64,000 bases of DNA from a virus (Duplodnaviria > Heunggongvirae > Uroviricota > Caudoviricetes), in IMG/VR virus record IMGVR_UViG_3300026549_000001, positions 32,001 through 96,000 of that record. One strand, 5' to 3'. Below the pieces are notes generated by a model that saw only the letters and a list, made by a program, of their open reading frames with translations, was not told where the DNA came from and did not search any database. Position numbers and translations under genes: made by a program. Below are positions 6,601 through 63,842 of the stretch, piece after piece. Every line of letters begins with the position of its first letter. Position 1 is the stretch's first letter.

Positions 6601-9600
6601 TATGTTGTGTTTCCATTGTGCAAAACGAATTTGGATAGCCATATCGTTCAATCATTGTCGCTCGTTTTTTAGTCATCGCTTGTTTATTATGACTTTTTTG
6701 TAATGATTCCTCTGTTAATAATGGCGTTGTTTTCCCATACCGAGCGATATTTGTAGCCTCTATTTTATTTCTTGTGTTAGGATGTTTTTGCCCACAAGAG
6801 ACACTACACACTTTTCGATAACCAAGAGCAAGATTGATGAAATTAGTAGGATTACCACATACTTGACAAATATCTTCGTTATCTTTTTTTAAATATAAAT
6901 TATAATAGTTTTGTGTTGTCATACCATGTGCCAATGCAATATGACAACCAAGCCCTCTATAATTTGGACTTGTATGTTCACAAATTAGACATTTTACCAT
7001 TAAATATTTTCCTTTTAGGTTAAGCAAGAGCAAGGTGGGTAGCCGCGGCTCTTCCGAGGCGAGCTATACTCCCAAGTGCCTGTTTTACTGTGTCTACCGA
7101 TTTATAATCATCTGATGTCATACATAAATGGACTATATCTTTATCCTATATACTATTACCATATATAAAATACCTACCACTTCCCTTTAATAGACTTATA
7201 TATAACTATTCTCATTATATCGCTAACCGTTAAGGCGGTACTCTACTCATTTATTCATATAAGTTTTTCTCTTATATTATACTTTCGATAGTCTCTGAAC
7301 CGTTCTCTATTCGAGAGTTGGTTGCTGATTACTAATTATTAAACGACCGTAGGAGTAGATTGCTTTTACTACCTTTTATTTCACCATAGCCGATTTCTTT
7401 TATTTTTTCTGCTTTCGCAACATTCACGACTGTCTGTATTTCAAAACTTCGTTGTAGTTAAAAGAACATTATAGCTTTTCAGCAATTAAATAGGTTAATT
7501 TTTGCACATATTGGTTAAGTTATCAAAATAAACATTAACCTTTATATACCGAGCCTATAACACCATTAAGCTCATTGAGTTCATCACATAACAGTATCAT
7601 GCACTTTGGGGTATATTCCCCTCTTGTTTTCCTAATTGAGTTAGCATCCACATAAGAATTGTAACCCTTGACTTCGGGTAATTGTGGATGCTTCCACTTG
7701 TTCTTCTGTAAACCATTATATATATCTTCAATAGTAAGAATAATGGGTTGTCTACCTTCAGGATATATCATTAGGTTCTTTGCATAATTTCTATCTGTTT
7801 CGTCCAAGTCAACAGTAAGCTCAAACATTTCATCGAATTGACATTTTTTACCGAAAATTTCAAAATAATCTACTTCGACTCCTTTGCACTTATATATATT
7901 ATTGACTTGTTGCTTCTCCATAAATTTGAAGCGGCTCATCATTAGAGTTTGAAAGTTTGCCGCAAGTGCCGCCGCTGTTGCTACATCAAGCGCAACTCCT
8001 TTGACTCCTTTAACCCCCCGCAACAAATTGAATTCCACTCTTTTACAATCCCATTTACTTATTATATTTCTATAATAAACTGACTATATCTTGTATAATA
8101 AATGACTTATTTGTGAATTTTAAACTGCTTATACCAATGTTTATCATGAAATTTACTAATACAATAGTTTAGGTGTGGTTGTACTTCTTCGACTGTCCAC
8201 ATTATAACATTATTATCAGCCATACACTTGCGTTTATCTTTATCCTTTAGTTGTCTATCTTCATCCAAGAATTGAAGTCCTTTTATCTCAATCAGCTCAT
8301 CATTGATTAAGAAATCTGGAAAATAATAATGTTTTTTATTATTACTATCGTAGTATTCAAGTCTAATTGGTAATCTATTGATAGGTATGTTATTATCTTT
8401 ACAATAAATATATACAGCTAATTCCCAAGAGCTATCAAAGTTTAAATTATCATACTTGTAATGGCTTAAAGTTCTCTTTTGAATTTCTCTGTTTTGTTGA
8501 GGATTTTTAACCCCATATCTTTCCATGTTGGTATGTTTAATTTTTTCTTTGCCATACTCTGATGCAAAAACATTTTCAGCCCCAAACTTTTCTACAAGTG
8601 TTTTAATGGCTTTTGCTTTAATCTCTCCCGCTTGTAATGTGCATATATTACCGTATAGTTCTAAATTTGTTTGTTTTGTTTTTTCTATAACATCTATGCG
8701 TTGATGGGCATTCTCTACACCATACCGCTCAATATTTGCTTGTTTAATTTTTTCTTGTATTTCTTTTGATTTAAACGGATTGTTCACCCCATAATTCTCG
8801 ATAAATGTTTGTTTAACTTTATCTTGCGTTTCCCTCGTACAAAATGAAGTTTTATATCCGTGTACTCTTAAGTGTGTGGCTAATCGTTTTTCTTGAATCG
8901 TTTTATCTGCATACTGACATTTTTTACTGCATCGGGAATTATATCCTTGATTAAGACTAATAAACTTGGTAGGGTTTCCGCAACATTTACAGATTCCCTC
9001 TCCTTCCCGCTTTAGATAAGTGTCATAATATGTTACATTTGTTAAGTTATGATGTTTTATATGCCATGATAACTGTTTTGCTGTTTCAAACGATTCACCA
9101 CATATTTTACAAGTTATCATTTATTATACTCCTTCCACTTCCATCCGTAACTCATCCTCGGATGTACTCCCTTAATGGGATAGTCGATACACTTCCTCAA
9201 TTTTTTGAGTTTAGCACGGTATTCGGTTTATCTCACCATTTTTCAGGTTTACCGTCTCTTATTCAGATTATTCGTCTATGGTTTATATCCCTATATCTTG
9301 TTGTAACATTTCATAGAGAAGTCTTATTTTTCTGATACCGTTAGCAATTTAGAATAAAATCTAAATCACACCCATGAGTAATATGGTTCAAAAGGAATGC
9401 GCGAATTGGTTTACGCCCGCTAACTGAAAGTGGTCGGGGAATCTTGATACATGACCTACAATGGACTGTTCAAGAACTGACTTTCCTGAATTGTGTAGAA
9501 TAGCTCCAAAAGGAGATTGAAACTTTGGAGAGGTGTCCAATGTAAAACCATAATATTGTCCAATTTGATTTAATGGTTTTACAGCAAAGTTTACTTGTTT

Positions 9601-9603
9601 CAA
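3691..9603 (-). CDS. FtsK-like ATPase 1, C-terminal gene: 38-aa intein C-fragment plus C-extein. Exons 9603-9413, 8051-7569, 7122-7023, 5740-5528, 4194-3691
   Basis: TTG start with AAGGAGG RBS. Joined exons are in frame and read ...ILHN/SGKSVLEQS...AGV^DCKRVEF...ILLCDELNEL^MTSD...GSIARLGRAAATHLALA^CQRASG...GRGFLQSG...QPED^DWEF, which are FtsK/SpoIIIE motifs. Confidence 0.88.
4195..5527 (-). mobile_element. Group I intron 4 (carries an endonuclease ORF)
   Basis: P1 AGAGGAU/GUCCUCU with U-G at the 5' splice site; CAACGACUAUC and GAUAUAGUC P7 strands; P9 hairpins; terminal G; removal restores the frame. Confidence 0.85.
4277..5281 (-). CDS. Intron-encoded putative homing endonuclease (C2H2/CxxC Zn motifs, KYGVxN repeats, PD-(D/E)XK/Vsr-like C-terminus)
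   Basis: CQLC..H..H, CPVC, YELDIYLP..LAIEYNGTYWH; stop codon overlaps the P7 3' strand; likely start ATG 5281. Confidence 0.8.
   Translation of the reverse strand: MQCQLCNENVNVLGVHIKIHNISPKQYYDLFYKTSQEGICPVCSKETTFLGLTKGYRIFCSNSCSALYNQNRKDVRDKTKHTLQEKYQITCACGRGNSSYRANQTKKALMAKYGVDNPFYLTTIQEQIQNTKTEKRTLFEQENKCTRMKTLVNLYGEGWKQNKQLNIPRIYYCNSAFIPNEYIPIIKEYYNSHIATTDTLPEQEIVKCLMGVYPYEIIRHIRTIISPYELDIYLPHRKLAIEYNGTYWHSKVPKDYHLKKSLLCREKGIRLIHIYGFENFEEQLSLLTYLIMNEDRYPKDDFNKNNLIDIIPTPSIIYNKECVVYGAGNIILSE
5741..7022 (-). mobile_element. Group I intron 3 (endonuclease ORF in the P1 loop)
   Basis: Exon ends UUGCU and pairs with GGCA downstream of the ORF; core GAAUUGCGGGAA, AAGACUAUCG and AAGAUAUAGUC; ends ...CCAG before TGT CAG AGA. 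Confidence 0.85.
6131..7000 (-). CDS. Intron-encoded putative homing endonuclease
   Basis: CLIC..H...H, CQVC, RYG repeats, YPYHCDFYLP..FVEING..TH. Confidence 0.8.
   Translation of the reverse strand: MVKCLICEHTSPNYRGLGCHIALAHGMTTQNYYNLYLKKDNEDICQVCGNPTNFINLALGYRKVCSVSCGQKHPNTRNKIEATNIARYGKTTPLLTEESLQKSHNKQAMTKKRATMIERYGYPNSFCTMETQHKVQQTLLKRYGNNNPMCGNVLEKYNGTRSSWENILKTALLEHNIPFEYEYNKDLRYPYHCDFYLPNTDTFVEINGYFTHNNHWFDETSQADVSVLNAWKEKAKTSNKMQMAIDIWTKKDVEKRKCAKQNKLNYVVLWTLEDIHNWIASNFEIRHDY
7123..7568 (-). mobile_element. Group I intron 2 (no ORF, 446 nt)
   Basis: P1 GAGCU/GGCUC; AAUUGCUGAAA, GAGACUAUCG and AAGAUAUAGUC core; terminal G; the CT^T join gives DELNELMTS. Confidence 0.85.
8052..9412 (-). 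mobile_element. Group I intron 1 (carries an endonuclease ORF)
   Basis: P1 GCGU/GCGC; GUAUCGACUAUC and AAGAUAUAGUC; P9 hairpin with GAAA loop; the GT^G join gives AGVDCKRVEF. Confidence 0.85.
8107..9120 (-). CDS. Intron-encoded putative homing endonuclease
   Basis: CKIC..H..H, CKCC, repeated YGVxN units, FDSSWE..YFPDF..IEIKG nuclease motif. Confidence 0.8.
   Translation of the reverse strand: MITCKICGESFETAKQLSWHIKHHNLTNVTYYDTYLKREGEGICKCCGNPTKFISLNQGYNSRCSKKCQYADKTIQEKRLATHLRVHGYKTSFCTRETQDKVKQTFIENYGVNNPFKSKEIQEKIKQANIERYGVENAHQRIDVIEKTKQTNLELYGNICTLQAGEIKAKAIKTLVEKFGAENVFASEYGKEKIKHTNMERYGVKNPQQNREIQKRTLSHYKYDNLNFDSSWELAVYIYCKDNNIPINRLPIRLEYYDSNNKKHYYFPDFLINDELIEIKGLQFLDEDRQLKDKDKRKCMADNNVIMWTVEEVQPHLNYCISKFHDKHWYKQFKIHK
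9490..9603 (-). other. Split intein 1, C-fragment (38 aa)
   Basis: ..GQYYGFTLD..ILHN followed by Ser(+1) SGKS; VMA-type blocks F/G. Confidence 0.88.
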
Positions 9604-9687
9604 ATAAATTTCCTCCTTAATATATATTTCCCAAGATTGGGTTATATATAGCACTTACAAAATTACTTATTATTTGTATAATAAAAA

Positions 9688-9740: not shown

Positions 9741-10232
9741 TTATACTTTTTCCATAGCCATTTTACTTTGGAAGGATTCATCCATTTGTAGAAAAACATC
9801 AACAGGCATATCTATATGTTCACCCGTTTCTTTATCTACCATAGATAATATATGTTCTGCATTTACATAAAAGGTTTCTCCGTCAATAGTCAATTCATAC
9901 ATATCTGATAGTCCTGTATGTAATTTAGTAATTTGACGGGGAGTATTATCTTCTCCAACCACATAATCTCCAAGCTCAATATTTTTTGCTAATTTATATC
10001 GAGCATCAACAGGAAGGGTTGAATTATCTTCTTCTATTCGGAAAGACCTTTTTATTCTTCTACCATTAATATTATCTATAAGATAGTATTTAAAGTAGTC
10101 GGTCATTTCTAATAATTCTGAAATTGAAAAGCAATATTTCTTTGGGAATAGAAAGCCTTTAAATACAAATAATTGTTTATTGTCATTTCCAATAATAAAA
10201 GAGTTATCATCTAAATATACTCTGTATCTCAT
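9741..10232 (-). CDS. Free-standing Hint core, middle piece of split intein 1
   Basis: KLAKNIELGDYVVGEDNTPRQITKLHTGLSDMYEL..FYVNAEHILS is a VMA-type N2/B block; no block A and no terminal HN. Confidence 0.82.
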   Translation of the reverse strand: MRYRVYLDDNSFIIGNDNKQLFVFKGFLFPKKYCFSISELLEMTDYFKYYLIDNINGRRIKRSFRIEEDNSTLPVDARYKLAKNIELGDYVVGEDNTPRQITKLHTGLSDMYELTIDGETFYVNAEHILSMVDKETGEHIDMPVDVFLQMDESFQSKMAMEKV

Positions 10233-11621: not shown

Positions 11622-12674
11622 TTACAGTAACCAATCTTTTCTTATTGGTAAATTATCATTAAACCAATTGTCTATATCTTCTTTATTCCATAATACAACA
11701 TAATTTATATTGTTTCGTTCAGCACATAATCTTTTTTGCACATCCTCAACTGTCCATATAGAAATAGCTCTTTGATAGTATGAAGATGATTGTTTAGATT
11801 TCCATTCACCTAATTTATCTAAATCTACTTTGTTATTACTATCAAACCAATGTCCTCCGTGAGAAGGATGATTATTTATTTCAATAAATAAATCTAAATG
11901 TGGTAAATAAAAATCACAAAAATAGGGATAACGACTATCTTTATATTCTTCTATATAAGAAGATATATTATAGGCTTCTAATAATAGAAGAAAATATTTT
12001 TCCATCTTGCTTCTTTTGTCATTCTTGCGTAATGTATTTGTTCTCTTACTCCAACATTCATCAGAATATACTTTTTCTAACTGTAAAGTATTTGACACCC
12101 CATATCTCTCTAAATTGGTAGTCATCATTTTTTGTTTGATTTCATCAGAATACATAGGATGGCTTACACCGTATTTTTGTAATAATGATTGTCTTATTTT
12201 TTCTTTTATACTTTCAGATGCAAATGGGTTTTCTGCATTATACCGAGAAATATTAGTCTGTTTAATTCTTTCTTGAATATCTTTATTTGCAAAAACATTT
12301 GATACTCCATATTTAGATAAATTAGTTTGAATTATCTTTTGTTTTACTATAGGAGATTTCAATACATTAGATACACCATATTTTTCTTTAACCGTAGAAG
12401 TTCTCTTTGCTTTGGTTTCTTCTGAACGCAGTTGTTTTTGTAGATTTCCATTAGTGTCAGAATTTGCACATTTAGAGGAACAATATTTAAGATAGCCCTT
12501 CACATAACCATTAAACTTTGTATCTTTTCCACACAAAGCACATTTTCCTTCATCTGCACTTTTTAGGTAACTATCATAATACTCTTTCAAAGTAATACTA
12601 TGCGATAGGCGTATATGACTACTTATCCCACATATTTGGATTTCTTTTCCACATATTTCACATTGTACTATCAT
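11622..12674 (-). CDS. Free-standing putative homing endonuclease; overlaps the end of the FtsK-1 N-gene
   Basis: Same family as the 6131-7000 ORF (YPYFCDFYLP..FIEIN..H, KYGVSN repeats). Confidence 0.8.
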   Translation of the reverse strand: MIVQCEICGKEIQICGISSHIRLSHSITLKEYYDSYLKSADEGKCALCGKDTKFNGYVKGYLKYCSSKCANSDTNGNLQKQLRSEETKAKRTSTVKEKYGVSNVLKSPIVKQKIIQTNLSKYGVSNVFANKDIQERIKQTNISRYNAENPFASESIKEKIRQSLLQKYGVSHPMYSDEIKQKMMTTNLERYGVSNTLQLEKVYSDECWSKRTNTLRKNDKRSKMEKYFLLLLEAYNISSYIEEYKDSRYPYFCDFYLPHLDLFIEINNHPSHGGHWFDSNNKVDLDKLGEWKSKQSSSYYQRAISIWTVEDVQKRLCAERNNINYVVLWNKEDIDNWFNDNLPIRKDWLL

Positions 12675-13431
12675 AAGGTCTTTCTAATGTATTAAACATT
12701 CTAATAGGAGTTTGTTCAGAAAAACACCCTGTACCCCCCGCTATGAGCATTGATGTGGAGGGAATAGTAGGATATAAAGAGGGGTTTTTATTTTGGTCGT
12801 TAAGATACCAAGCAATAGGAGATACTTGTTGAGTATTAGTGTTAATACATAAACCTACAGGTATAATGTTCCAAAAGAGGTCATCTTCTTGTTTGAATTT
12901 AGCCATTTTAGGAATAGGTTGCCTTTTCTTACATTCTACTTGAATAACACCTCTGTCAATAAATGTTTTTATATAGAAATAAGAAAAGTGTATGGACTTG
13001 TCACTCATTTCAGTAACAAATTCTTTTTTGTCAACTTCTTTTCCTGAACGGTCATATTCTATGTATATATATTTTCTGTCATAAAATATTACATCTGTGC
13101 CTAATCTTTTTTGTGCGATTTCGAACACCCAATCATCGAATGGAGCTTTTCTCAAGAATAATCCCTTAACAATAAAAGCTAATAAAAGCAATCCAAGAGC
13201 TAAAACACCACAATATAAAATAATGTGTCTGAAAATAGGATGTCCTGTAATATTAGCAGTTTGTTTGACAAAAGTAGAAGCAAATAAAAGAGCGGCTATT
13301 ATAAGAGCAATAATAGACAAGGTGCGTAGGGTTTTGAATACCCTATACATAAACTGATTTCTTGGTTGTATACCTTTGAGAACAACCTCTTCCTGTTTGT
13401 CATTTGCTATATTATCTTTAAAGAGTGCCAT
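12658..13431 (-). CDS. FtsK-like ATPase 1, N-terminal gene: 2 TM helices, ends in half of Walker A plus a 22-aa intein N-fragment (12661-12726)
   Basis: ..SMLIAGGTG/CFSEQTPIRMFNTLERPYDSTM*; CFxxxTPIRM is intein block A. Confidence 0.85.
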   Translation of the reverse strand: MALFKDNIANDKQEEVVLKGIQPRNQFMYRVFKTLRTLSIIALIIAALLFASTFVKQTANITGHPIFRHIILYCGVLALGLLLLAFIVKGLFLRKAPFDDWVFEIAQKRLGTDVIFYDRKYIYIEYDRSGKEVDKKEFVTEMSDKSIHFSYFYIKTFIDRGVIQVECKKRQPIPKMAKFKQEDDLFWNIIPVGLCINTNTQQVSPIAWYLNDQNKNPSLYPTIPSTSMLIAGGTGCFSEQTPIRMFNTLERPYDSTM

Positions 13432-15567: not shown

Positions 15568-17745
15568 TTAATCTCTTTTCTTTTGGAATGGATTGCTTGT
15601 TAATAGCTTCACATCGTAATTAGAAATTATATGAATAAATCCAGTTCTGTTCTGACTGTCTATCATAAAACAATTACCTGTGGCTAATTTTGTGGTACTT
15701 GCAATAACACTATCTGTATCAATTGCGGTTGATGCATCTATTTTAGATGTGTCAAATTTATCTAAAAATAGTTTAGCTTCTTCCATAGAACTTCTAAACA
15801 TTACTTTGGTTGACATAAACTGTGCAATGTTATCAGGAAAGTGTGAGATGCCTTGTGAAGCCAATAAAGTAGCTGTATTAAGCGAACGCCCTATAACAAG
15901 GAATTTATCTATAAGGTCAGACATTTTTTTATTACCATACAATAAGTGAGCTTCATCACAAACTAATGTGGTAGGTATTTTATTATCTGATGATAGGAGT
16001 TCATATAATTTAGTTGTAATAATATACAAAATAGCAGAAGTGAATCTTTCATTAGCATCATAATCTTCCACTTTCTTTGTATAGTCAGGCAAACTCATTC
16101 CGTGTAAAGTAATAATTAAAGATGTTCCTCTATTTAAATATAATGGAGTAACATTTTCCTCTCTGGTGAATAATAATTTACCGTACTTATTATCTTCATA
16201 CATTTTTAGCATATTGCCTATTTTTTGACAAGATTCATTATCTCTGCTAAAAAGATAGTCAGCGACATCTTGCATATCTTTATAAACACCATCTCGGTTA
16301 TATGCAATAATAAAGTCTTGAATAATAGGTGTAATTGCTATAATATCCTGTTTATCTAATTTACCACATATTATCTCTATTATAGATAAAAGAGTAGAAC
16401 TATCAAATTTATCTAAAAATGTAAAAGGATTTAATGCTCCTGGGCGAATATTATTTATATCTATAAACTCAACAGAACTACTTACATTTAGTAATTTATT
16501 GAAGTCATTCTTCGGGTCTATACAAATAACCCTTTGCCCCATTCCTAAAGCATTTGCACATACATTTAATAGAAAAAATGTATTATGGGTAACTACTGTA
16601 TCTCCTGCAATAAATTGATGGTCTGGAGCATCTACCATAAAACAGGTACAATCTTCTTCTTTATTTAATGGTTGAATATCTATGATTTGTAAAGTGTTAT
16701 AATTGCGATAATGTTTTTTAACAATAGATGATGCTTCTAATGCTCTTTCTTTCTTTGCACTATATGAGAAAAAATTAGGCTTTCTTTCTGCAAAACAACC
16801 AACAAATATATTGTAACTTGGATTACCTTTTCGTAAGTCAGGATTTCTTTCTGAACAATACATATAACCCATACTACGGACAACCTCTATAATATCATCA
16901 ATAAGTTGTCTTGAACCACTACAATATGAAATATTATATCGTGGTGGAAGACCTATTGTACCATCTGTATCAAATAGCCCCTGTATAAGCTCCCACCTAT
17001 CCTCCTCGGTAGTATATTTATAACAATCGGGAATATACTTATTATAAGAATAACAATTTGTCAATAAATTTTGTATTTCTTCATTTTCTGTTAAATGCTT
17101 TGCGTGTACTCTGTTATTACTATTATCAAAATAAAAGCTATAAGTATATCCTACTTTCTCTTTTTTACAAGTAATTGTAGTATTTAATTGCTTACTTAAT
17201 AGTAATGCAATTTTATTTGGAACTTCTTCATTTCCAGAAGAAACCTGTAAGTCCCCATAACTGCGACAACCATTACCTAAAAATGCTCCAATTATATATG
17301 GTGCTACAGTATACGACTGCTTTGGGAATTGAAGCGCACCATTGTTTTGTAAATAAAAGTTATGTCTATTCGTGCTATCTGTGACACCCTTTTTTATTAT
17401 ATCTTCTACACTCATTATCTCCCACTTATATTTTTTGTGAGAAATTGTACCGACTAAAAACCTATGGTCTTTAGAACAAACTATTTTTCTTCGGTCGGCT
17501 AATGTCACTTGATACATTTCTTTTTTCCCTTGTGGAAAAACACCTAATACTTTGGTTGGTTGCCCATTTTGTCCAAAAATATAATCTTGTTCTTTTATAT
17601 CTGCTATTGTTTTCATCCCCTGCGGGGTTATTATCCGCTCACTATTAGCGATCGGCTTTCCGCTGCCTGGGGAACCTATCACAACTGAACCAGAAGCTCT
17701 ATTAGTCATTTGAGCAGTAACGGGCGACCATCTAACTGTACTCAT
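15568..17745 (-). CDS. VirB4/TcpF-like conjugation ATPase (ATPase domain only) containing an intein
   Basis: GSPGSGK/TFF Walker A, IDPKND, LVCDEAH Walker B, GRS..ASQ. Confidence 0.85.
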   Translation of the reverse strand: MSTVRWSPVTAQMTNRASGSVVIGSPGSGKPIANSERIITPQGMKTIADIKEQDYIFGQNGQPTKVLGVFPQGKKEMYQVTLADRRKIVCSKDHRFLVGTISHKKYKWEIMSVEDIIKKGVTDSTNRHNFYLQNNGALQFPKQSYTVAPYIIGAFLGNGCRSYGDLQVSSGNEEVPNKIALLLSKQLNTTITCKKEKVGYTYSFYFDNSNNRVHAKHLTENEEIQNLLTNCYSYNKYIPDCYKYTTEEDRWELIQGLFDTDGTIGLPPRYNISYCSGSRQLIDDIIEVVRSMGYMYCSERNPDLRKGNPSYNIFVGCFAERKPNFFSYSAKKERALEASSIVKKHYRNYNTLQIIDIQPLNKEEDCTCFMVDAPDHQFIAGDTVVTHNTFFLLNVCANALGMGQRVICIDPKNDFNKLLNVSSSVEFIDINNIRPGALNPFTFLDKFDSSTLLSIIEIICGKLDKQDIIAITPIIQDFIIAYNRDGVYKDMQDVADYLFSRDNESCQKIGNMLKMYEDNKYGKLLFTREENVTPLYLNRGTSLIITLHGMSLPDYTKKVEDYDANERFTSAILYIITTKLYELLSSDNKIPTTLVCDEAHLLYGNKKMSDLIDKFLVIGRSLNTATLLASQGISHFPDNIAQFMSTKVMFRSSMEEAKLFLDKFDTSKIDASTAIDTDSVIASTTKLATGNCFMIDSQNRTGFIHIISNYDVKLLTSNPFQKKRD
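16582..17655 (-). mobile_element. Cis intein (358 aa, class 3-like, LAGLIDADG) in the VirB4-like Walker A
   Basis: Starts with Pro; CSKDH block B; GAFLGNG and GLFDTDG; CTC block F; VTHN/T. Confidence 0.9.
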
Positions 17746-23616: not shown

Positions 23617-24006
23617 TTATATTTCTTCCCATTTTTGGTCTTCTCTCTTGTCTATTTCGGCACTTTCACCATTAAACTCAAAAGTTGTTTTATCATCAGC
23701 AAAAGAGATTTCCTCTGTACCTTCCAATTCATCAAGCAATTCTTCTGTGTTAATTATTTCATCAGAATTATAACCCATAGGTGATAATCCTCTTAATTTA
23801 TAATATTCTTCTATATCTTCAAATTTAGAAAAGAATACTCTTGCAAATAAAGGTGTACCCGCAGACTGAATAACTGCCATACCAGGATATGTATTATCTA
23901 TTGTAGTTGCCAATGTATTATCTAATGCAACTAAACTACTTCCCGCTTCCGTTGCTTTGCCACAAAAACAACGAAATCCACAATTAGAAGTCAAAATTTT
24001 CCCCAC
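23617..24006 (-). CDS. FtsK-like ATPase 2, piece D: 8-aa intein C-tag plus C-terminal extein
   Basis: GTG start with AAGGAGGT RBS; MGKILTSN/CGFRCFCG..SSLVALDNTLA..PG matches the FtsK tail. Confidence 0.78.
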   Translation of the reverse strand: MGKILTSNCGFRCFCGKATEAGSSLVALDNTLATTIDNTYPGMAVIQSAGTPLFARVFFSKFEDIEEYYKLRGLSPMGYNSDEIINTEELLDELEGTEEISFADDKTTFEFNGESAEIDKREDQKWEEI

Positions 24007-24021
24007 AAAAAAGCAACCTCC

Positions 24022-25134
24022 TTAATATAATTTTCCCGCGCCATAAATTGTATGTTTGTCATCTTTATATATAATCATCGGTTCGGGAATTGTAGGTAAC
24101 AAATTATTCTTGTTAAAATCTCCAATAGGATAGTTGTCTGTTCCTTGTAATAAAGATTTTAATAGAGATAGTTGCTTATTAAAATCTTCAAACTCGTATA
24201 TGTGAATAAGTCTAATGCCTTTTTCTCTGCATAATAGACTTTTATTTAAATGTTTATCTATAATAGGACAATGTTCAATGCTATGCCAATGTGTACCATT
24301 ATATTCTATTGCTAACGACAAAGAAGGTATATATAAATCCAACTCATAAGGGGAAATTACTCTTCGTGTATTAGTAAGAATTTCTCCATTATATAATGTT
24401 TCTAAAAGTTGTAATATTCTATTTTCGGCTTCACTTCTTTGAGATTGGCTACTGTACGCTTGTATATCCTTTAGAAAGTCCTTTGATATATAAGTATTTA
24501 CCCCGTCTTTTATTGTAGGTAAATTAAGAGCAAACCAACCCTGTCCATATTCCGCTATAAGTGTTTTCTTGACAATACAATTATGAGTATGCTCAAAAGA
24601 ATGAATGTTTTTTCAACGGGTAATATTTGCTTTTTCCTTGCGGGATTGTTCTTCTGATGTAGTTTTTATACTATGCCATTTTTTATTTCTATTTGATAAT
24701 GTAGCACGAAACTGTTGTTTTTCATCGTCTGAAAGAGCGTTATAACGAGCATAATACTTTTCCCGCAACAATTCTTTGGTGGCTTGTTTTGATTGTTCGC
24801 TTCGTTGAGATAACCCTTGTGATATTCTTTTTCCAAACTCATTACCATAGGTTTCTCTAATGGTAAAAAGTCGTTTCGTATGTGACTGCTGTAATTGTTC
24901 CTCTGTATAATGTTTATTTTGATATGTGGTAGCACAAGATGTAGAACAAAATTTTCTATACCCTTTGGACAAACTTATAAAAGTAGTTGGTTTTCCACAA
25001 ATTAAACACTTACCATCTTCCACATTTATATAAGTATCATAATATTCTTTTGGAATAACATTATGTGTATGGGATAGATGTCGGCTAAATCCTTCAGTTG
25101 TAGTAAACAGTTTGTTACAAAAATGACAAATCAT
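24022..25134 (-). pseudogene. Homing endonuclease family gene interrupted by an in-frame TGA at 24613-24615
   Basis: ORFs 24613-25134 and 24022-24342 share a frame; reading through gives ITR*KNIHSFE..YGQGW as in the paralogs. Confidence 0.75.
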
Positions 25135-26597
25135 TTATCCTTAATCCATAGGTCGCAATTTTCCCCATCAATAATTCTAACATAGTCGGGGCGTTGTTTT
25201 AGCCACCAAGTAACATCAAGCTCTTGATTAGTAACTATAGCATCAAAATCATATTTCTTAAAATAATGGTCTATAATTGCCCCATCTTTATCTTTTCTCA
25301 TTTGCATAAAAATATGAACCGAATCTTCATATCCCATTTCTTTTATATAGGGGTGCTGTCTTGTATCTTGAAACACTTTTATATCATTCCATAATAATAT
25401 ATTTCCAACGGCATATCCATTTAATAGTCTACTTGGTTTATTATTTTTTAGATATTCTACTATGTCAGATGATATATATTCTGATGAAGTGTTTAATACA
25501 TACTTATCCATTGTACTATATGAGTAAACAAATGACAGTAAGCAAAAGATTGTGGATAGTATGCTTGTAGAAATTATAATCCACCATTTATGATGAATTG
25601 CTCTTTTATTATATTCAAGAGGGGCTTTGTCAAACAACTGCTCAATATAGGTATATCCTAAAATCGGATAACAATATACTAATAATGTGCTACTTTTTAT
25701 CGCCTTAAAAGTTAGTACAAATAATATACATAATAAGCCTATATTTATAAAATCTTTTCGGCTGTATTTTCTTTTAGAACAAAACAATACTATTATTAAG
25801 AATAGTGTGCCAATTATCTGTGGAACAAAACTACTCTGAAAAGGTTGCCACTCTGAAATATAAGAGTTGTCAGCCAAAATAGCTTTAAGCATACTTATAA
25901 TAGGAGTATAACCTAATGGATTAACTAACAGCCCTATACTAAATAATAGAATGGAGCAAATTCTATATCCTATATATCTTATAGATATAACTTCTTTATC
26001 TTTATACAAAAGAGCAGATATAAAATCTAATCCAAATTGAGCGCACATAAATCCCAATAATACTATTGCCTGTCCGCAATGAAAATTAGATAGAAATACC
26101 CCTATTAGAAAATAGAATAGTATATTTCTAAAATCAATCTTCTTATTATATAAATATAGTATAATTATAAAACAAAAGGTAGAATACTCTGATGGTCTAT
26201 TTATTGGAGTAGCATATAATAATAAGTGTACTAATAAATATACTCCACCAAATAATACTATATTTTTTGGTTTAACTATTCTAACACTTACATAGAATAA
26301 TATAATACTAAAAACCGCGTGTATAATATAAAAACCATAGATATTAAATATATGCACTACATTATATAATAATACATCAAACAACCATTCTTGTTGATTC
26401 CACTCACTATTTGTTAGCCAAGTAAATGTATTATTTGTGGTTATCGTTCCTGTATTGGTTATTTGTTCTCCAATTTTTATATGCCACAAATAATCATAAT
26501 CATTAGAGTATCTTCCTAATAAGGTAATCCAAAAAATCAAAAAGAAAATAGTGATTATAATATATTTATCTATGCTTTTGGTTTTTAGTAGTTTCAT
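25131..26597 (-). CDS. Multi-TM protein, probable GT-C glycosyltransferase
   Basis: DYLWHIKIG..W..QEWLF, NFH.G, NPLG, ISEWQP and VFQDTR motifs with about 11 TM helices. Confidence 0.65.
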   Translation of the reverse strand: MKLLKTKSIDKYIIITIFFLIFWITLLGRYSNDYDYLWHIKIGEQITNTGTITTNNTFTWLTNSEWNQQEWLFDVLLYNVVHIFNIYGFYIIHAVFSIILFYVSVRIVKPKNIVLFGGVYLLVHLLLYATPINRPSEYSTFCFIIILYLYNKKIDFRNILFYFLIGVFLSNFHCGQAIVLLGFMCAQFGLDFISALLYKDKEVISIRYIGYRICSILLFSIGLLVNPLGYTPIISMLKAILADNSYISEWQPFQSSFVPQIIGTLFLIIVLFCSKRKYSRKDFINIGLLCILFVLTFKAIKSSTLLVYCYPILGYTYIEQLFDKAPLEYNKRAIHHKWWIIISTSILSTIFCLLSFVYSYSTMDKYVLNTSSEYISSDIVEYLKNNKPSRLLNGYAVGNILLWNDIKVFQDTRQHPYIKEMGYEDSVHIFMQMRKDKDGAIIDHYFKKYDFDAIVTNQELDVTWWLKQRPDYVRIIDGENCDLWIKDK

Positions 26598-26643
26598 ACT
26601 ATTCCCGTAAGTGGTTTTTCACCCCGTCTAAAAAATTAAGGTA

Positions 26644-27126
26644 TTACAACAAATCCATAATTACCAAGTCTGTTCCTTGTGAATTCTCATAAATTACATC
26701 ATAATCATCTGCTTTAATAGATAATTCTTGACAGACAAGTTTAATCAAGTCATCTTCTATAATGGTCGTTTTTCCTTTTACATACTCAATTAGTTTTGGA
26801 ACAATAGACTTAAATGCTCCATAAACAACTATACAATCCTTAATATCATCATCGGATTTAAGTTCATTGTATTTCAAACCCGTTTCAAGAGCTTCCAAGT
26901 CAATAATTAACTCGTTGTTATGGTCGATTATACTAAATCTTTCATAAGAAGAAAAATATATAGTAAGGTGGTCTACATTATCAGGCATATCACCGCTAAA
27001 AGTATTTGGTGAAATGTTTATTGTAAAACTTCTGTCTGCTTGCACAAGTTCTTTAAAAATAATATAACTAAAATCATCTAACCCGTTCAAAATGCGGGAT
27101 AAATCATTTACTTTCAAAAATGCCAT
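26644..27126 (-). CDS. Hypothetical protein (C-terminus resembles 51534-52022)
   Basis: DDLIKLV..YDVIYENS versus DDVIKLV..YDIIWDNS. Confidence 0.55.
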   Translation of the reverse strand: MAFLKVNDLSRILNGLDDFSYIIFKELVQADRSFTINISPNTFSGDMPDNVDHLTIYFSSYERFSIIDHNNELIIDLEALETGLKYNELKSDDDIKDCIVVYGAFKSIVPKLIEYVKGKTTIIEDDLIKLVCQELSIKADDYDVIYENSQGTDLVIMDLL

Positions 27127-27129
27127 AAA

Positions 27130-27480
27130 TTAATCTTCTCCATAAATTACAAATAAACTATCTTCTGTGTCAGTAGTAATACATCTTACTGGTTCGGGTT
27201 TAATTTCCTGTATAGATAATAATTTACTACCACAAAAATCGACTGTTTGAAAATACTCAAAATCATCAAAGATGTTAAGAGTATCAGTTATATATTTTAG
27301 TTCGTTTATATAATAATGCCATTGGTGATTCCAAGAGCATTTTACCTTCCCATTATCAAATGTTAAAAGAAACATTCTTAAAGGGAGATGGATAGGAGTA
27401 AGGTCTAATACTGTGTGGGGTTTACCATCATAACCAATAACCTTATCTCCTATTTTTACATCTCGTAGCTTTTTCTTCAA
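27130..27480 (-). CDS. Free-standing Hint core, middle piece of split intein 3 (class 3-like)
   Basis: LRDVKIGDKVIGYDGKP; CSWNHQW block B; EPVRCITTD..LF block F; no block A or G. Confidence 0.85.
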   Translation of the reverse strand: MKKKLRDVKIGDKVIGYDGKPHTVLDLTPIHLPLRMFLLTFDNGKVKCSWNHQWHYYINELKYITDTLNIFDDFEYFQTVDFCGSKLLSIQEIKPEPVRCITTDTEDSLFVIYGED

Positions 27481-27504
27481 GTTATATTTCCCTTCATAAT
27501 TAAA

Positions 27505-27777
27505 TTAGGATAATCCTAATGCAATTCGTGTTATAATGATGGTATCAGCAATTCCTACTGTACCATCGCCATCCATATCAGCCCTCGCTGGCATAAAAAC
27601 ACCGTTGGTAATTCCCAACATAACATAACGCATTGTTGCAATAGCATCAGCAATGGTTACGGCACTATCTCCGTTCACATCTCCCAAAAGAGGAGCGGGG
27701 AGTGTTTCGGCAAAAGCGGGAACTGCAAGAGCCATAATCATAATAGCGACTAAACTGAACACAAGTAATTTCTTCAT
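27505..27777 (-). CDS. Secreted stand-alone type I dockerin
   Basis: Signal peptide plus duplicated GDVNGDSAVTIADA / ADMDGDGTVGIAD. Confidence 0.85.
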   Translation of the reverse strand: MKKLLVFSLVAIMIMALAVPAFAETLPAPLLGDVNGDSAVTIADAIATMRYVMLGITNGVFMPARADMDGDGTVGIADTIIITRIALGLS

Positions 27778-27828
27778 ATAAAAAGATTCTCCTATAAAAT
27801 AATTTTAGTTATAAAGGATATTCTACTG

Positions 27829-28567
27829 CTATTCTTCCAAATAATTCTTTTCTATTTCTGTCCAACAATGTTCAAAAAAATGAATAGCCTTACCAATATC
27901 ATCATCTGCCTCAATTGATGTTTCCGTATTATAGACTTCTTCACCATCATCAGGCATTAACCAATCCATATCATATTCTTTCATATAACTATTATTATAA
28001 GCTACCTTACCACATATACGGTAAGTATCTAATAGGTATTCCCCATCATCTCCCTTGTTTTCAAAGCCATCAACCCAAGCTAATACAACAGCCCAAGTTT
28101 TCCGACCTTGTTTAAGTATAGTTGAATAATATGTTGAAGATGTATCTCTATGTTTTTTAAGAGTATCTATAAAATCTCTTACTTCATTATATACTATCAT
28201 AATATTTCCTCTTTAAATATTCGGCAAACGCAATATCATTTTGTTCCATAAAATAACCCGACTCTAATTGTCCCTCATACCATTTTTGAGCGGTTTCAGC
28301 CAAGTCTTTATCTACCTCTACACCATTAAAATAATCTTCCACTATATGAACTAAATGAAATACACCTAACTGTCTACATTGTTTCAAAAAATTAAAACCG
28401 AATGCTCCTAATTTTGGAAATTTGACAATCCAAGTTTTTTCTTCTTCAGTATACATAGGATAAGATTGTCCGTTAAGCTCCCAAGTCATATTTATTACAG
28501 AATCAATAAGAGATGGATTATTTTGTTGAATAATATTTACTTCTCTCGGTGTTAAGTCTCTACTCAT
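27829..28567 (-). CDS. Two hypothetical proteins (27829-28200 and 28187-28567)
   Basis: ORF track; overlapping and coupled. Confidence 0.55.
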
Positions 28568-28569
28568 AA

Positions 28570-28908
28570 CTATTCTTCTATTTCTACCAAAGTATCAAGG
28601 CTTAAAGGATTTGACCTTAATACTGTGGGTACAATATCTGCTTTTGGTTTCTGTGTAGCTATACTTATATGTATACCCGCACTTCTACCTAACTGTGCTA
28701 TTGATGATAAGATTGATACTATTTCATCTTTTAGCGCATCTTCTTCCTTTGCTTCGGCACTTTTCATACCACTATGCTGTGTCAACTCTGCCAACTCGTC
28801 ACAAATCACCAATAATACTTGTAACTCATCAGAATATATATAATCTACGCAGTTTGCATTAACAGGAATCCAATCCGTACCATTAAGGCAAACTTCCACT
28901 TCTTTCAT
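28570..28908 (-). CDS. FtsK-like ATPase 2, piece C: Walker B region plus a 12-aa intein N-tag (28573-28608)
   Basis: LLVICDELAEL..IAQLGRSAGIHISIATQKP..LRSN/PLSLDTLVEIEE*; likely start ATG 28908. Confidence 0.85.
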   Translation of the reverse strand: MKEVEVCLNGTDWIPVNANCVDYIYSDELQVLLVICDELAELTQHSGMKSAEAKEEDALKDEIVSILSSIAQLGRSAGIHISIATQKPKADIVPTVLRSNPLSLDTLVEIEE

Positions 28909-31250: not shown

Positions 31251-31721
31251 TTATGTACTATGTAAAAGTTCTACAAGTTCACTTGCTTTCATAGATGTTT
31301 CCTCTCCATCTACTCTTACTTTTATAGTATCATTTTCATTATATTCCCTACCTGTAACATAAACCTTGTCAGTTTTTTTACTTGGCAAATAATCTGTTAA
31401 GGATTTTATTCCCATCTTTGCCATTTCCTTATTTCGCTTATACATACATAATCTTGCAATGCGTAATAATTCAACCGCCTCTTTAACACTATTGGCAACA
31501 CCAACTATTCCGTTCATTCCTTTATAATTAGAATATTCAACTTGCTTAATATCAATCAATCCTAATGCAATCTTATCTCGGTGTTCGATACAATGTATTA
31601 TAAGATTCTGGGTTAAAACGGAGTTATGAGATTTAATTCCATTGGTAATATAAGAGCCTGTATTTGTACTGACACAAAAACAAGGTAGTTTGCCAACAGG
31701 TTCACAAGATAATAGTTTCAT
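31251..31721 (-). CDS. FtsK-like ATPase 2, piece B: 33-aa intein C-fragment (31623-31721) plus extein
   Basis: MKLLSCEPVGKLPCFCVST..IKSHN/SVLTQNLI..LIDIKQVEY..MYKR. Confidence 0.87.
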   Translation of the reverse strand: MKLLSCEPVGKLPCFCVSTNTGSYITNGIKSHNSVLTQNLIIHCIEHRDKIALGLIDIKQVEYSNYKGMNGIVGVANSVKEAVELLRIARLCMYKRNKEMAKMGIKSLTDYLPSKKTDKVYVTGREYNENDTIKVRVDGEETSMKASELVELLHST

Positions 31722-31786: not shown

Positions 31787-33013
31787 TCAAATTATAAGGT
31801 TTACCCGAACAGGGTTTAGTACACACCCAATATCCAATGGTTTTTCAACATCTTGGAATACTTTTCTCATTATTTGATAAGCCCCATTTACATCTGCGTT
31901 TATTAATGTACCATCATTACTTCTAAACAATCCTCTGTTTACTCGTCTTTTTGGGTTATAGTATTCTTTTAAAGGGGGTTCATTATCTAAAAAACTTGTA
32001 CCCGAAGTGTAACTTTCTTCGGATAAAATGAAATTAATACCTTCTTCCTGACATTTATATTTTAATTTTTGTATAAATGAATAGTATGGTATTTGAGCAA
32101 AATTCTTTAGGCGTACCCCCTGTTTTTGATATTTATTGTGTCCAACCACAATAGAGGTAATACCCAAAGAAAGACAATGGTTTACAATATATTTAGAAAC
32201 TCGGTGCAAAAAACAATCTATTTTATCTGCCCTTTTATTTTGCAAACCATATAATAGATGACTATACCCAATATCATTTCCATTTCTATCTAATTCAGCT
32301 TTTACTGAATTAATGCGATAATTGAAGTAGTTATTACAAGATTTTAGACCTTTACCATTTATAATAATTGGTTTATTAAACATATTATCAACAAAGGTTA
32401 CAAAGTTATCTAATCCCAAGTCTATACTACCTATTGCCCCGCATTCATTAATTTGTTCTGAAATATCAATAGTATATATTAATTCCACAATGATTCTTTG
32501 GTTATGGGGTACAAATCTACATTGGTTAAAGTTTACAAGTCTACTATCTTTAATAAATTGTGGTTGAAGTGTAAATCCACACAAAGATTTGCTAAAATGA
32601 ATTAGCCCGTCTTGTTTTAGTCTACAATTTGATTTTGTCAATGAGAATTCAGTTACACCATCTTTTTTCAAATATTTAGGCAGTTGTGGTCTGCCTTTAT
32701 ATTTTGATGGATTATTTTTCCAATCCTTTATAGTAACAAAAAATGATTTCCAATTATCTTCCAAACGGCGAAGAATTTGCTGACTGCCGCTTGATAATTC
32801 TAATTCCCAATAGTCAGGGTATTCTAAATTACTCTTAACTAATTTATCAACCTCGCCATATCTCAACCACTTACCATTTTCAAGAAATTCCTTACGAACA
32901 AGATAATTGCCGTGGTTATATATGTTCTTGGCAATGTGACATTTTTTAAATAAAAGATTGTACCACTTGGATTGTCTATCTATTATATGTTTTTCTGTTC
33001 TTTGCACTAACAC
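31787..33013 (-). mobile_element. tnpB: TnpB (IS200/IS605-superfamily RNA-guided nuclease) with no transposase
   Basis: IDLGLDN, EESYTS and NADVNGA RuvC motifs. Confidence 0.88.
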
Positions 33014-38821: not shown

Positions 38822-39349
38822 TTATATACTTAATTCTCCAAAAGTATTTAGCAAGAAAGCCACTCCTTCTAATGGAACCCAGTAATGAACATCATCAATT
38901 TTTTGGCTTTCTTCTTCTATGGTAAATCTTTTAACAAAGACTTCCCTGTATGTTCCATCCTTAAATGTTATTTGATAACATTCAAAATGGTCTTGACTAA
39001 TATCTATAACTTCCTGAAAAGCAGAATCATCAATACCACCAATTACATAAGAATAAACTAATTTTTTTTGTAAATCATCTACATATCCTAATATTTCACA
39101 AGATATATTTTCTCTCAAAGGAATTTTCCCCTGTGAACAATAATGCTCCACATAATCTTTTGCTTCTTGGGGAAACGCAGAAATATCTACCTCTATAAGA
39201 TGGTCTTTTGAAGCTATCAATGATTTTTCTATTCCATCATTATCTATATAAACTAACTTATAGCAATCGTATAGATGTGTTTGATGGCGTTGTGTAACCT
39301 CTGAACCATCTTTAAATTTATGCTTTCTTTTAACATCTTTCCATTTCAT
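38822..39349 (-). CDS. Free-standing Hint core, middle piece of split intein 2
   Basis: MKWKDVK..DGSEVTQRH..CYKL..KSLIASKDHLI is N2 plus block B (H); no block A or G; likely start ATG 39349. Confidence 0.68.
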   Translation of the reverse strand: MKWKDVKRKHKFKDGSEVTQRHQTHLYDCYKLVYIDNDGIEKSLIASKDHLIEVDISAFPQEAKDYVEHYCSQGKIPLRENISCEILGYVDDLQKKLVYSYVIGGIDDSAFQEVIDISQDHFECYQITFKDGTYREVFVKRFTIEEESQKIDDVHYWVPLEGVAFLLNTFGELSI

Positions 39350-40866: not shown

Positions 40867-42168
40867 TTATTCAATAATTTGTTCTATATAAATGGCTTTA
40901 CCTCCACCCGTATTACGAGTATAGAGGGCTTTATATGGATATATATTTCCACCACTCCATAATGGCTCTTGTGTGTCGGTAATTAAAAATAAATGATTTT
41001 CGGAATTAACCTTGATACATCTTACTGGCTCAATAGACACTTCATCTTTTGCTATTAATCCATAACTCTCTAATATATTGTTGGTGCTTCCAAGAACTCT
41101 GTCTGTGTATAATTTCAATTCTTCTGCGGAAGTTTCAGCATACCCTACATTTAGTTTGCGTTTATTTTTAAAGGTTTCAGCAGATTTTAATTCTTTGGGG
41201 AATTTATGTATTTTATCAGAAATTACATTTATTGTATTCAGACCTGATGCAAAGGTAAGACTATAAACTTTATCGGGAATTAGTATATCATGTACTTCCA
41301 CAACCTTGACTGGTTTATTGTTTATATCAAATACCATATCGCCCACTTCAATAGTAGCCATTGTTTTATATCCTTTTGTAGTAGGAATAACAGTATTTAA
41401 TCCTAATGGCGCACCACTAATAAGACTTTGTGGCTGTCGAGGTAAAGTAGTATCTTCAGGAATATAATTACCTTTTTCATCTTTATATTGACTATGGTAT
41501 CTTCTACTTTTAGGAACAGCATCAATTACCCAAGACACTTCACCTTTACCAGAAATACCCAATGGCATCTCTCTAAAGTGTTTTAACCAACTACCCGCCC
41601 AACGAGCCATATTCGGGGGTTTATCGTTTCCTACAAAGGTCATATATCTTTCTTCAAGATGTAACTCATATCCCCAAGTGAAATTTGGTAAGAAAGAATT
41701 AAGCTGTTGAAGAATAATAGATAATACTTTTTCATCAAATGAAGTAGGTTCAACTTCTACATCTATTTTATTGATATTACCATACTTATAGCCTAACTTG
41801 AAAGGTACTTTATTATAATCTAACCCCTCACCTTTCTTGTCAACCATTTTTTGTAGGATTTCATATACTTGTTGAATCTCTTTTCTTTGTTCTTCAACTT
41901 TAGATTTTTTGATAGTCATAAAGACCATCATAATAATAAGGGAAATAACAGCGTAGCCTAATACAATACCCCAATAAGCACTTTTTAGAGGACTTATTTT
42001 AGGAACTAATATTTGAGCAATTATCCCCACAAGAAAAAGAACAGCTAAAATAATACTATCTCTTTTTGAAAAAGAATAGCTTTCTTCCACTTCGTCAGAA
42101 ATGCCTAATATTTTATTAGCGGCAAATTGTGATATTGCTACTATTATAAAATATATTAGTATAAACAC
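40867..42168 (-). CDS. FtsK-like ATPase 2, piece A: TM N-terminus, cis mini-intein, TGGGK, then a 9-aa intein N-tag (40870-40896)
   Basis: QSLISGA/[intein]/TGGGK/AIYIEQIIE*. Confidence 0.85.
   Translation of the reverse strand: MFILIYFIIVAISQFAANKILGISDEVEESYSFSKRDSIILAVLFLVGIIAQILVPKISPLKSAYWGIVLGYAVISLIIMMVFMTIKKSKVEEQRKEIQQVYEILQKMVDKKGEGLDYNKVPFKLGYKYGNINKIDVEVEPTSFDEKVLSIILQQLNSFLPNFTWGYELHLEERYMTFVGNDKPPNMARWAGSWLKHFREMPLGISGKGEVSWVIDAVPKSRRYHSQYKDEKGNYIPEDTTLPRQPQSLISGAPLGLNTVIPTTKGYKTMATIEVGDMVFDINNKPVKVVEVHDILIPDKVYSLTFASGLNTINVISDKIHKFPKELKSAETFKNKRKLNVGYAETSAEELKLYTDRVLGSTNNILESYGLIAKDEVSIEPVRCIKVNSENHLFLITDTQEPLWSGGNIYPYKALYTRNTGGGKAIYIEQIIE
40912..41409 (-). mobile_element. Cis mini-intein (166 aa, class 3-like)
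   Basis: PLGLNTVIPT..TIEVGDMVFD; SDKIHKF; EPVRCIKV; YTRN/T. Confidence 0.85.
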
Positions 42169-60938: not shown

Positions 60939-61391
60939 TTACTTACCTCGCATACTTGTTAATACGGACTTTATTTGTTTGTTTGTAAACGCTCCGTACA
61001 CTCTTGAATCTTTACTATGTTCTCTATTATCCCCTAAACAAAAGTATTCATCTGTTCCAAGAGTTATGTTCATATCCTCTGTTTTACCCTCTGTATACCA
61101 TTCATTTATTCTTTCACCATTAACTATTAGTTGTTGGTTTACATACTTAACAGTATCATTAGGCAACCCGATTACCCTTTTCACTATATATTTATCATCT
61201 ATTTTTACAACTACTATATCAAATCGTTTTATATCTGTTACACCATTTCGTACTGCAATTCCTAATTTGCCATTAAGAAGTGTAGGGTTCATAGAATCTC
61301 CACTCACATTATACACCATAAGAAATAAATTCAGTATAAGCATTACTATAATTGTTATAAGCGGTAATATTAAATACTTAATTTTTTTCAT
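60939..61391 (-). CDS. lepB: Signal peptidase I
   Basis: GDSMNPTL, VKRVIGLP, GDNR..S.DSR. Confidence 0.92.
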   Translation of the reverse strand: MKKIKYLILPLITIIVMLILNLFLMVYNVSGDSMNPTLLNGKLGIAVRNGVTDIKRFDIVVVKIDDKYIVKRVIGLPNDTVKYVNQQLIVNGERINEWYTEGKTEDMNITLGTDEYFCLGDNREHSKDSRVYGAFTNKQIKSVLTSMRGK

Positions 61392-62996: not shown

Positions 62997-63842
62997 TTAA
63001 TAATCGTGGCGGCTAATTTCCTTTGCTACAATTATTAATCTTTGATTTCTATTTCCCCTATAACAAGTTTGTAGGGTAACAATTTTATCTCCGTATTCAA
63101 TATCTGTTATACTATCTAATTTATTTATTTGTTTAGTTAGTCTAACAAATTCATCAAATTGGTCGTTATCAAAATTGCGAGTTTGATGATTAAGTTTTGC
63201 AAAATCATTATTTATATAGGCATAACATATTACATAATCTCGCACTTCATTTTCAAAGTAAATAGAAAAGAGAGCATTTCGTTTATACACCTCATCTGAT
63301 AAGTAAACATCATTTAATGGGGCAAACTTTACAGTATAGTTGTTTCTATTATTATGTCCGTAAATAGTCAAGTTATCATCATCTAACTTATTTACATAGT
63401 TCATAAATACTGTACCTCTTGTATGGTACTGTTTATATATGTTTCTACGCAAATAGTAATCGTTATCCTTTGCTTGTACTATTGGCTCTCTTATCAATCC
63501 TGTATCAAACCACAAATATCCAATAACATCAGAATTAATAGATTTAACATTTCTAAAAGATTCCTTTGTCATTTTTTGTTCCAAATAATTTCCATCTTGA
63601 ATATCATCAATGTCATCTTTTGATACCATCGGGGGAATTGTGGGCTGTGGTGTAGGCGTTATTTCTGTTCCCCAAACAATATAGGGAGTAGGAGTAATGC
63701 CTTGATTTATAAGATTATCTATATCATCATATACATCTTGCTCTTGAACTTTGCCCTTATGTATAGTGACAATATTATAAATACCATATCCTATTACTCC
63801 TAATAAAATAATGGCTATAATTATTGATATTGTTTTCTTCAT
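62997..63842 (-). CDS. srtB: Class B sortase
   Basis: PIVQ..DNDYYL, IYGHN, TLQTC..R. Confidence 0.9.
   Translation of the reverse strand: MKKTISIIIAIILLGVIGYGIYNIVTIHKGKVQEQDVYDDIDNLINQGITPTPYIVWGTEITPTPQPTIPPMVSKDDIDDIQDGNYLEQKMTKESFRNVKSINSDVIGYLWFDTGLIREPIVQAKDNDYYLRRNIYKQYHTRGTVFMNYVNKLDDDNLTIYGHNNRNNYTVKFAPLNDVYLSDEVYKRNALFSIYFENEVRDYVICYAYINNDFAKLNHQTRNFDNDQFDEFVRLTKQINKLDSITDIEYGDKIVTLQTCYRGNRNQRLIIVAKEISRHDY

Follow-up and report, generated by a model that had tools for sequence, protein, structure and literature searches.

Do natural inteins exist in more than two fragments? This question is raised by a stretch of 64,000 nucleotides (the window), which corresponds to positions 32,001–96,000 of the IMG/VR virus record IMGVR_UViG_3300026549_000001 (G000 is that whole record). 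In the window, the parts of one intein are distributed over three separate genes, namely a 12-residue N-tag at the end of one ATPase gene, a free-standing Hint core of 116 residues and an 8-residue C-tag at the start of another ATPase gene. From sequence comparison and structure modelling, we predict that these genes very likely encode a functional natural three-piece class 3 trans-splicing intein, whose free core would stitch together the ATPase halves. Homologous loci and proteins are designated by L and P numbers, and three complete relative elements by G001–G003.

One intein in three genes

The coordinates that an initial annotation of the window had given for the N-tag, core and C-tag genes, all on the minus strand, were confirmed (Table 1). 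The product of the N-extein gene ends in ...LRSN/PLSLDTLVEIEE-stop, while the C gene (23617–24006, GTG start) begins with MGKILTSN/CGF, its Cys+1 codon lying at 23980–23982. The core contains neither block A, nor block G, nor any extein; its HQW motif provides His52 and Trp54 (His codon 27325–27327) and its VRC motif Cys100 (27181–27183). When concatenated in order, the three pieces (136 residues) can be aligned over their full length with the contiguous 145-residue intein of homolog P0005, every intein block being present, and the layout is therefore not a matter of chance. An identical layout was observed in three independent assemblies (L001–L003). Relatives in other studies cover the ATPase and intein genes of the window at about 90–97% identity, one contig spanning 24012–27708.

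As had also been proposed, the core and C-tag genes have ribosome-binding sites (RBSs) of their own. Duplex energies with the anti-Shine-Dalgarno sequence are -9.3 and -12.3 kcal/mol respectively, and the N gene reaches -13.3 kcal/mol; among the ATG, GTG and TTG sites of that strand, values of -8, -10 and -12 kcal/mol or lower occur in 5.7%, 1.8% and 0.4%. The start Met of the N gene (ATPase piece 3) is the same in homologs P0002 and P0060. Three unrelated genes separate the N-tag and core genes, and a 160-residue gene, a 488-residue membrane protein and a broken endonuclease lie between the core and C-tag genes. A secreted 90-residue dockerin protein (27505–27777) is encoded within this locus, and the 488-residue protein (25131–26597) is a multi-membrane one. 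The initial annotation regarded this intein as the most extreme case, which holds for both tags taken together and not for the N-tag, the Walker A intein of the same ATPase gene having an N-tag of only 9 residues.

The core as a class 3 Hint domain

In profile searches with the core, the best solved structures were the class 3 inteins 6RIX (E 2e-11) and 6BS8 (E 5e-10). The AlphaFold model of the core (predicted local distance difference test, pLDDT, 87) had 6BS8 as its first Foldseek match (TM 0.74, E 3.7e-6), with 6RIX also among the top ones. Class 3 was defined as in PMC7891396 and the window intein was aligned to 6RIX: Pro1 provides no nucleophile at position 1, and Trp B12, Cys F4 and Thr G5 form the Trp-Cys-Thr triplet. 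These data uphold the class 3 assignment made from the sequence alone, and also the view that the triplet is divided between chains, Trp54 and Cys100 being in the core and Thr, like the terminal Asn, in the C-tag. His B10 and Cys F4 are invariant in a 16-row alignment, in which Trp is kept in at least 90%.

M. smegmatis DnaBi1 (PDB 6BS8) and M. chimaera DnaB1 (6RIX) resemble the window intein in their Hint fold (TM about 0.7), in the absence of a position-1 nucleophile and in the block B His-x-Trp, block F Cys and block G Thr and Asn. However, both are contiguous and reside in DnaB, whereas the window intein, at about 22% identity, consists of three polypeptides in an FtsK/TcpA-like ATPase. 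Bacterial intein-like and Hedgehog Hint domains have the complete Hint on one chain and lie outside a conserved intein site. The window core is not of this kind, because blocks A and G are missing from it and are instead carried by ATPase pieces, at an intein site. A complex prediction of the core with both tagged peptides scored 0.22 against a mark of 0.32 and was used neither for nor against splicing; the structure model of a contiguous homolog had low confidence over the N-tag and was not used for placing the tag.

A series of alleles at one insertion site

Searches with the C-extein (56 clusters) and the N-extein (24 proteins and 59 loci) revealed a full evolutionary series at a single site. 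In 13 empty alleles, P0002, P0007–P0011 and L047 among them, Asn is followed by Leu, Thr or Ile. Contiguous inteins occupy the same site in P0005, L039 and L073. The intein is cut only after the N-tag in L008, L035 and L038, and only before the C-tag in L006, L020, L021 and L025, so that each break occurs alone in nature; short tags on both sides are a further state. Such an in-frame insertion, at a site empty in homologs and followed by Cys at +1, is what is expected of an intein. Cys+1 was present in 48 of 48 intein-bearing alleles and in none of the 13 empty ones (P0050 was reassigned by eye). The initial annotation had staked its reading on a T-x-N/C start being conserved among homologs of the C gene, and this start is indeed kept: G5 is Thr in 45 of 47 sequences, the terminal Asn and Cys+1 are found in all, and several homologs begin with 8–10-residue tags. 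Position G6 is more variable (His 39, Arg 3, Lys 2, Gln 2, Ser 1). On the N side, homologs have the stop codon at the same position following the tag.

Single-sequence searches with the core matched only the core itself, and its relatives were recovered only through exteins and profile searches. No match was obtained in GTDB genomes, and annotated plasmids and phages yielded only distant FtsK matches, below 30% identity among the matches listed. The top ESM Atlas match, a 118-residue hypothetical protein (65 members, 0.96), may represent the free-core family.

Other variants were seen at this site. The N-tags at L067:~10340, L072:~1160 and L071:~4810 start with Cys or Ser instead of Pro and are possibly class 1 alleles or the product of a class switch at one site. 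In the C genes P0015, P0024–P0026, P0030, P0032 and P0039, a leader of 48–75 residues resembling a partial repeat of the Hint N-terminal strands precedes the final T-x-N/C, P0039 having a full Hint plus leader insert. In many gut alleles (L012–L019, L026–L030), an intron-like insert two residues past the contiguous intein (about 250 bases after Cys+1-Gly) interrupts the C-extein, so that an intron is stacked onto the intein junction.

Three-piece loci with scrambled order in relative elements

Three complete elements, G001 (332 kb), G002 (290 kb) and G003 (394 kb), each encode an extein-free core of 118–120 residues with its own start, a 12-residue N-tag and a C-tag of 10–17 residues, which brings to four (G000–G003) the genomes with three fragments of which the middle one is extein-free. 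In these relatives the gene order along the strand is core, C, N, and the cores lie 7–59 kb from the tagged genes (core, C and N at 55.4, 84.9 and 97.1 kb in G001, at 34.3, 27.0 and 22.5 kb in G002, and at 238.9, 195.5 and 180.4 kb in G003). This scrambled order excludes cis RNA splicing or simple DNA excision in G001–G003.

The window core is 42–45% identical to these cores. Ratios of nonsynonymous to synonymous substitution (dN/dS) of 0.04, 0.12 and 0.10 for the G001–G003 cores and of 0.07–0.13 for the extein, which are rough because synonymous sites are near saturation, point to purifying selection on the three cores. The extein phylogeny is incompatible with placing all four three-piece hosts in one clade (p-AU 0.0004), suggesting either two origins or lateral spread of alleles; the core tree leaves the deep branching, and thus the number of origins, unsettled.

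Origin of the breaks

An endonuclease gene precedes the C-tag in the window, in L025 and in G001, and lies between the N-tag and the core in L008 and L035. The one in the window (24022–25134) is 44–48% identical to that filling the break between the two halves in L025 and is likely the agent of the C-side split. Its gene call is split in L001–L003 as in the window. The window core starts like the large fragment of the N-split L008 (53% identical), and the window C-tag starts like that of the C-split L025, with its homologous endonuclease in the break. This suggests that the intein was fractured twice in succession, in each case probably through insertion of an endonuclease gene, after which the pieces would have drifted apart. 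The presence of at least four copies of this endonuclease family in G000 calls for caution on this point.

Proposed mechanism

Class 3 splicing chemistry (PMC7891396, PMC10559147) served as a model for the reaction. The free core would bind the first beta-strand (the 12-residue tag of piece 3) and the last beta-strand (the 7–8-residue tag of piece 4), thereby completing the Hint fold. By analogy with class 3 inteins, Cys100 of the core would attack the Asn/Pro1 bond and form a thioester with the N-extein, which would then pass to Cys+1 of piece 4, and the terminal Asn of the C-tag would cyclise. An S-N shift would leave ...R-S-N-C-G-F... and restore an ATPase segment that is contiguous in intein-free relatives. 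The shortness of the tags is probably offset by pre-assembly of the exteins within the ATPase fold, which may supply affinity beyond what 8–12 residues might provide. The reaction would not alter the core chemically but would leave the two short peptides bound to it, and turnover would therefore depend on the release of the excised tags. It could be imagined, as a rather doubtful extension, that the free core is a multiple-turnover transpeptidase, whose own Cys carries the acyl group as a thioester and which, once regenerated and freed of the tags, ligates further ATPase pieces. If so, a selfish single-turnover intein would have been turned into a trans-acting peptide-tag ligase.

Evidence against splicing and alternative explanations

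Several observations weigh against splicing of the three pieces. The ATPase has an intein-free break between pieces 2 and 3 (31251/28908), inside an inserted subdomain, which is tolerated, and covalent joining of its pieces may not be needed everywhere. The penultimate His is replaced by Ser, as had been noted, and the block F His (F13) is also Ser (DSLF), which the initial annotation had not listed. The window allele thus lacks both histidines that usually assist Asn cyclisation, Ser at G6 being unique to it among 47 sequences. The AceL NrdHF intein, which is devoid of both the C2:13 and C1:6 histidines, nevertheless splices efficiently, with a half-time near 4 minutes (PMC7891396), and the two missing histidines are therefore a caution rather than a disqualification. 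The dN/dS of the window core was measurable only against the distant two-piece L008, giving 0.36 near saturation. The C genes of G001 and G003 contain an in-frame TAG five codons after Cys+1. Finally, the engineered precedents cut one of these sites at a time, and none was seen that combines both cuts in a class 3 intein.

The TAG of the C genes is carried by a conserved 6-base in-frame insert (G001:84884 and G003:~195537, in L091 and L092). Similar short in-frame TAG inserts are found in piece 2 of G001 and G002, one of them at the site of a ~400-base insert in G003. They may be explained by an intron relic, a collapsed assembly or recoding. Reassignment of TAG was considered as the cause of the stop in G001 and G003 and rejected, since no further case of a TAG standing for a residue appeared in the alignments and G001 yielded no CUA tRNA. 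Since the C genes of G001 and G003 carry this TAG and the N gene of G003 is interrupted by an intron-like insert, G002 is the only clean second three-piece example; its set of genes is uninterrupted, and the two histidines absent from the window allele are present in it.

The alternative that survives best is that the pieces assemble without ligation, the core being a clamp or only clipping the tags and the ATPase working as a non-covalent complex. The tolerated break just upstream and the absent histidines are what it would predict, and a scaffold role would also place the core under purifying selection. It leaves unexplained that Cys+1, which is needed for ligation, is kept in all 48 alleles, including all short-tag genes, and never occurs in empty ones. 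Moreover, a pure scaffold is expected to lose some of the terminal Asn, Thr G5, His B10 and Cys F4, which are kept across cores only 42–45% identical, and we consider this explanation unlikely. It is less probable again that the layout is functional in relatives and that the window copy is decaying or the ATPase a pseudogene. All six ATPase and intein genes of the window are open reading frames, the three of this intein have good RBSs, G000 contains no second copy of this ATPase, and relatives in other studies cover the same genes; the dN/dS of 0.36 against L008 also argues against decay. In its favour are the unique Ser at G6 together with Ser at F13, a core a few residues shorter than in two-piece relatives and an adjacent endonuclease that is already broken.

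That the pieces are rejoined before translation into an ordinary contiguous intein, by self-splicing introns or DNA excision, would fit the many intron-like interruptions of this element family and the collinearity of the window pieces, but is highly improbable, being largely refuted by the gene order in G001–G003 and opposed by the separate RBS and start of each piece, the conserved position of the post-tag stop, the unrelated genes in the gaps, the lack of repeats at the breaks and the lack of an Rfam match, a weak negative since Rfam also missed putative introns elsewhere in the window. Contigs of run X2, labelled as RNA, one of which measures 12 kb, are collinear with the DNA and show no joint at the breaks; they may be DNA, the run had no positive control, and they were not counted as evidence. 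A promoter scan gave scores not usefully above shuffles.

Comparison with known split inteins

Engineered inteins cut at S1, at S11 or into three pieces belong to class 1 and thus have the first nucleophile on the N-piece, unlike the window intein. They are artificial, share the two cut positions of the window intein and indicate that three-fragment splicing is feasible. Engineered inteins work when cut at S1 (11–12-residue N-piece) or S11 (6–7-residue C-piece) (PMC3620165), a three-piece intein was built by Sun, Yang and Liu in 2004, as cited in PMC3620165, and other three-piece designs are functional (Weis et al., 10.1101/2023.01.30.526203).

AceL NrdHF, the first natural split class 3 intein (Hoffmann et al., PMC7891396), resembles the window intein in being natural, of class 3, encoded by a fractured gene with an endonuclease and devoid of both histidines. 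It consists of two pieces (98 and 48 residues) separated at the canonical split site, one chain carrying both the branch Cys and the Asn, whereas in the window the Cys, the Asn and the N-junction are on three chains. The fractured genes of Dassa et al. (PMC2677866) and the atypically split VidaL, PolB16 and AceL TerL (summarised in PMC13014065) have a free-standing endonuclease at the break and a short N-fragment at S1, and all are described as two-piece. The window intein shares with known natural split inteins the separate genes with their own starts and the endonuclease at the break, and departs from them in not consisting of exactly two extein-fused fragments. According to the 2026 paper PMC13014065, natural short N-fragments measure 15–37 residues, 15 being called record-short; the window intein differs from the natural atypically split ones by its 12-residue N-tag, shorter than the shortest published, as well as by its 8-residue C-fragment and extein-free core.

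Neither a natural three-piece intein nor a natural counterpart of the 8-residue C-tag was found in the literature searched, which left out most subscription journals. Chemistry, fold and fracture mechanism are known from earlier work; the arrangement as three genes with a free catalytic core is not, its only published form in the literature searched being a laboratory construct. A 2023 preprint stated that more than two intein fragments were not yet proved in nature (10.1101/2023.01.30.526203), a question that would here be answered with a conserved, selected and recurrent example. Both tags are easily made by peptide synthesis and the N-tag has no Cys, so a naturally evolved system could serve as a basis for ligation and labelling with minimal tags and for three-input logic. 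Genome surveys would miss this class of inteins, whose free cores are annotated as hypothetical proteins.

The host ATPase and its other inteins

The host protein is, by its sequence, an FtsK/TcpA-like ATPase (a DNA-pump protein). Its intein-free homologs P0009 and P0010 match FtsK/SpoIIIE PF01580 (E 4e-19 and 1e-21), with Walker A and B behind N-terminal membrane segments. Four window genes tile P0009: 42168–41389 corresponds to residues 1–256, 31646–31257 to 250–376, 28911–28609 to 377–477 and 23994–23629 to 474–596. No intein is present at the break between pieces 2 and 3, and the intein-less homologs P0002, P0014, P0016, P0020 and P0034 are broken at the same place, suggesting non-covalent complementation, and the mature ATPase is therefore probably composed of two chains even after splicing. 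An IS605/TnpB gene (31787–33013) directly upstream of piece 2 is absent from relatives in runs X4 and X5 (1313-base skip) and is thus a recent insertion.

Table 1. Positions of the ATPase pieces, intein parts and associated endonuclease in the window
Feature	Position	Strand	Evidence or remark
ATPase piece 1: membrane segments, cis mini-intein, Walker A glycine loop, 9-aa N-tag	40867..42168	-	
Free Walker A intein core; this intein is the second three-piece one of the host gene	38822..39349	-	fused to its C-part and extein in P0011, L006
ATPase piece 2: 33-aa C-part of the Walker A intein, then Ser+1 and host residues ~250-376; intein-free break at end	31251..31721	-	
ATPase piece 3: N-extein, Walker B to ...RSN; ATG at 28908, strong RBS	28570..28908	-	Pfam FtsK_SpoIIIE E 4.7e-7
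Intein N-tag, 12 aa (Pro1, block A), then stop 28570-28572	28573..28608	-	12-13-aa stop-terminated tags in many homologs; conserved peptide despite synonymous divergence
Free-standing class 3 Hint core, 116 aa, TTG start; block B His52 and Trp54, block F Cys100	27130..27480	-	profile, fold, alignment
Homing-endonuclease-like gene directly upstream of the C-tag gene, in-frame TGA at 24613-24615	24022..25134	-	PHROG 3339 E 6e-30
Intein C-tag, 8 aa (7 upon Met removal), block G Thr-Ser-Asn	23983..24006	-	8-10-aa tags in P0003, P0022, L025, G001, G003
ATPase piece 4: C-extein, first residue Cys+1	23617..23982	-	56 homolog clusters; continues intein-free P0009 at residue ~477

The Walker A intein is also three-piece in the window (9-residue N-tag 40867–40896, core 38822–39349, 33-residue C-part 31623–31721). 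In G001–G003 its second cut is placed later, block F staying on the core and the C-tag having 11–12 residues; it is two-piece in P0011 and L006. A third three-piece intein, of class 1 (Cys1), is found in a paralogous FtsK-like gene (12658–13431, 9741–10232 and 9388–9654), and its free core and tagged genes are conserved in G001–G003 at 42–64% identity. Since two other inteins of these elements are also three-piece, one with a differently placed second cut, the layout is, as far as the sequences tell, a recurrent outcome. A cis mini-intein of the same family (40900–41409, 26% identical to the core) lies five residues before the Walker A N-tag; it has kept Pro1 and the block F Cys, has Phe for Trp and ends in Arg-Asn before Thr.

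The element

The record is circular (250,568 bases, 127-base terminal repeat, 32.6% G+C) and was found in bovine gut runs. Despite its listing as a virus in IMG/VR, the record contains genes for a VirB4-like ATPase and a TrwB-like coupling protein as well as 18 tRNAs. In this record and four relatives, terminase PF03237 was found in none of the five (other terminase, capsid and phage hallmark families were not searched), and VirB4-like AAA_10 in all five. From this gene content, it is read as a large conjugative plasmid-like rumen element. Relatives of 170–480 kb occur in gut metagenomes and have no close counterpart among annotated plasmids or phages. A conjugation module is located at 15568–17745, 57869–60607, 61378–62442 and 62997–63842, with VirB4-like and TrwB-like ATPases that contain LAGLIDADG inteins, a relaxase-like gene and a sortase-like gene, the latter two assigned by eye.

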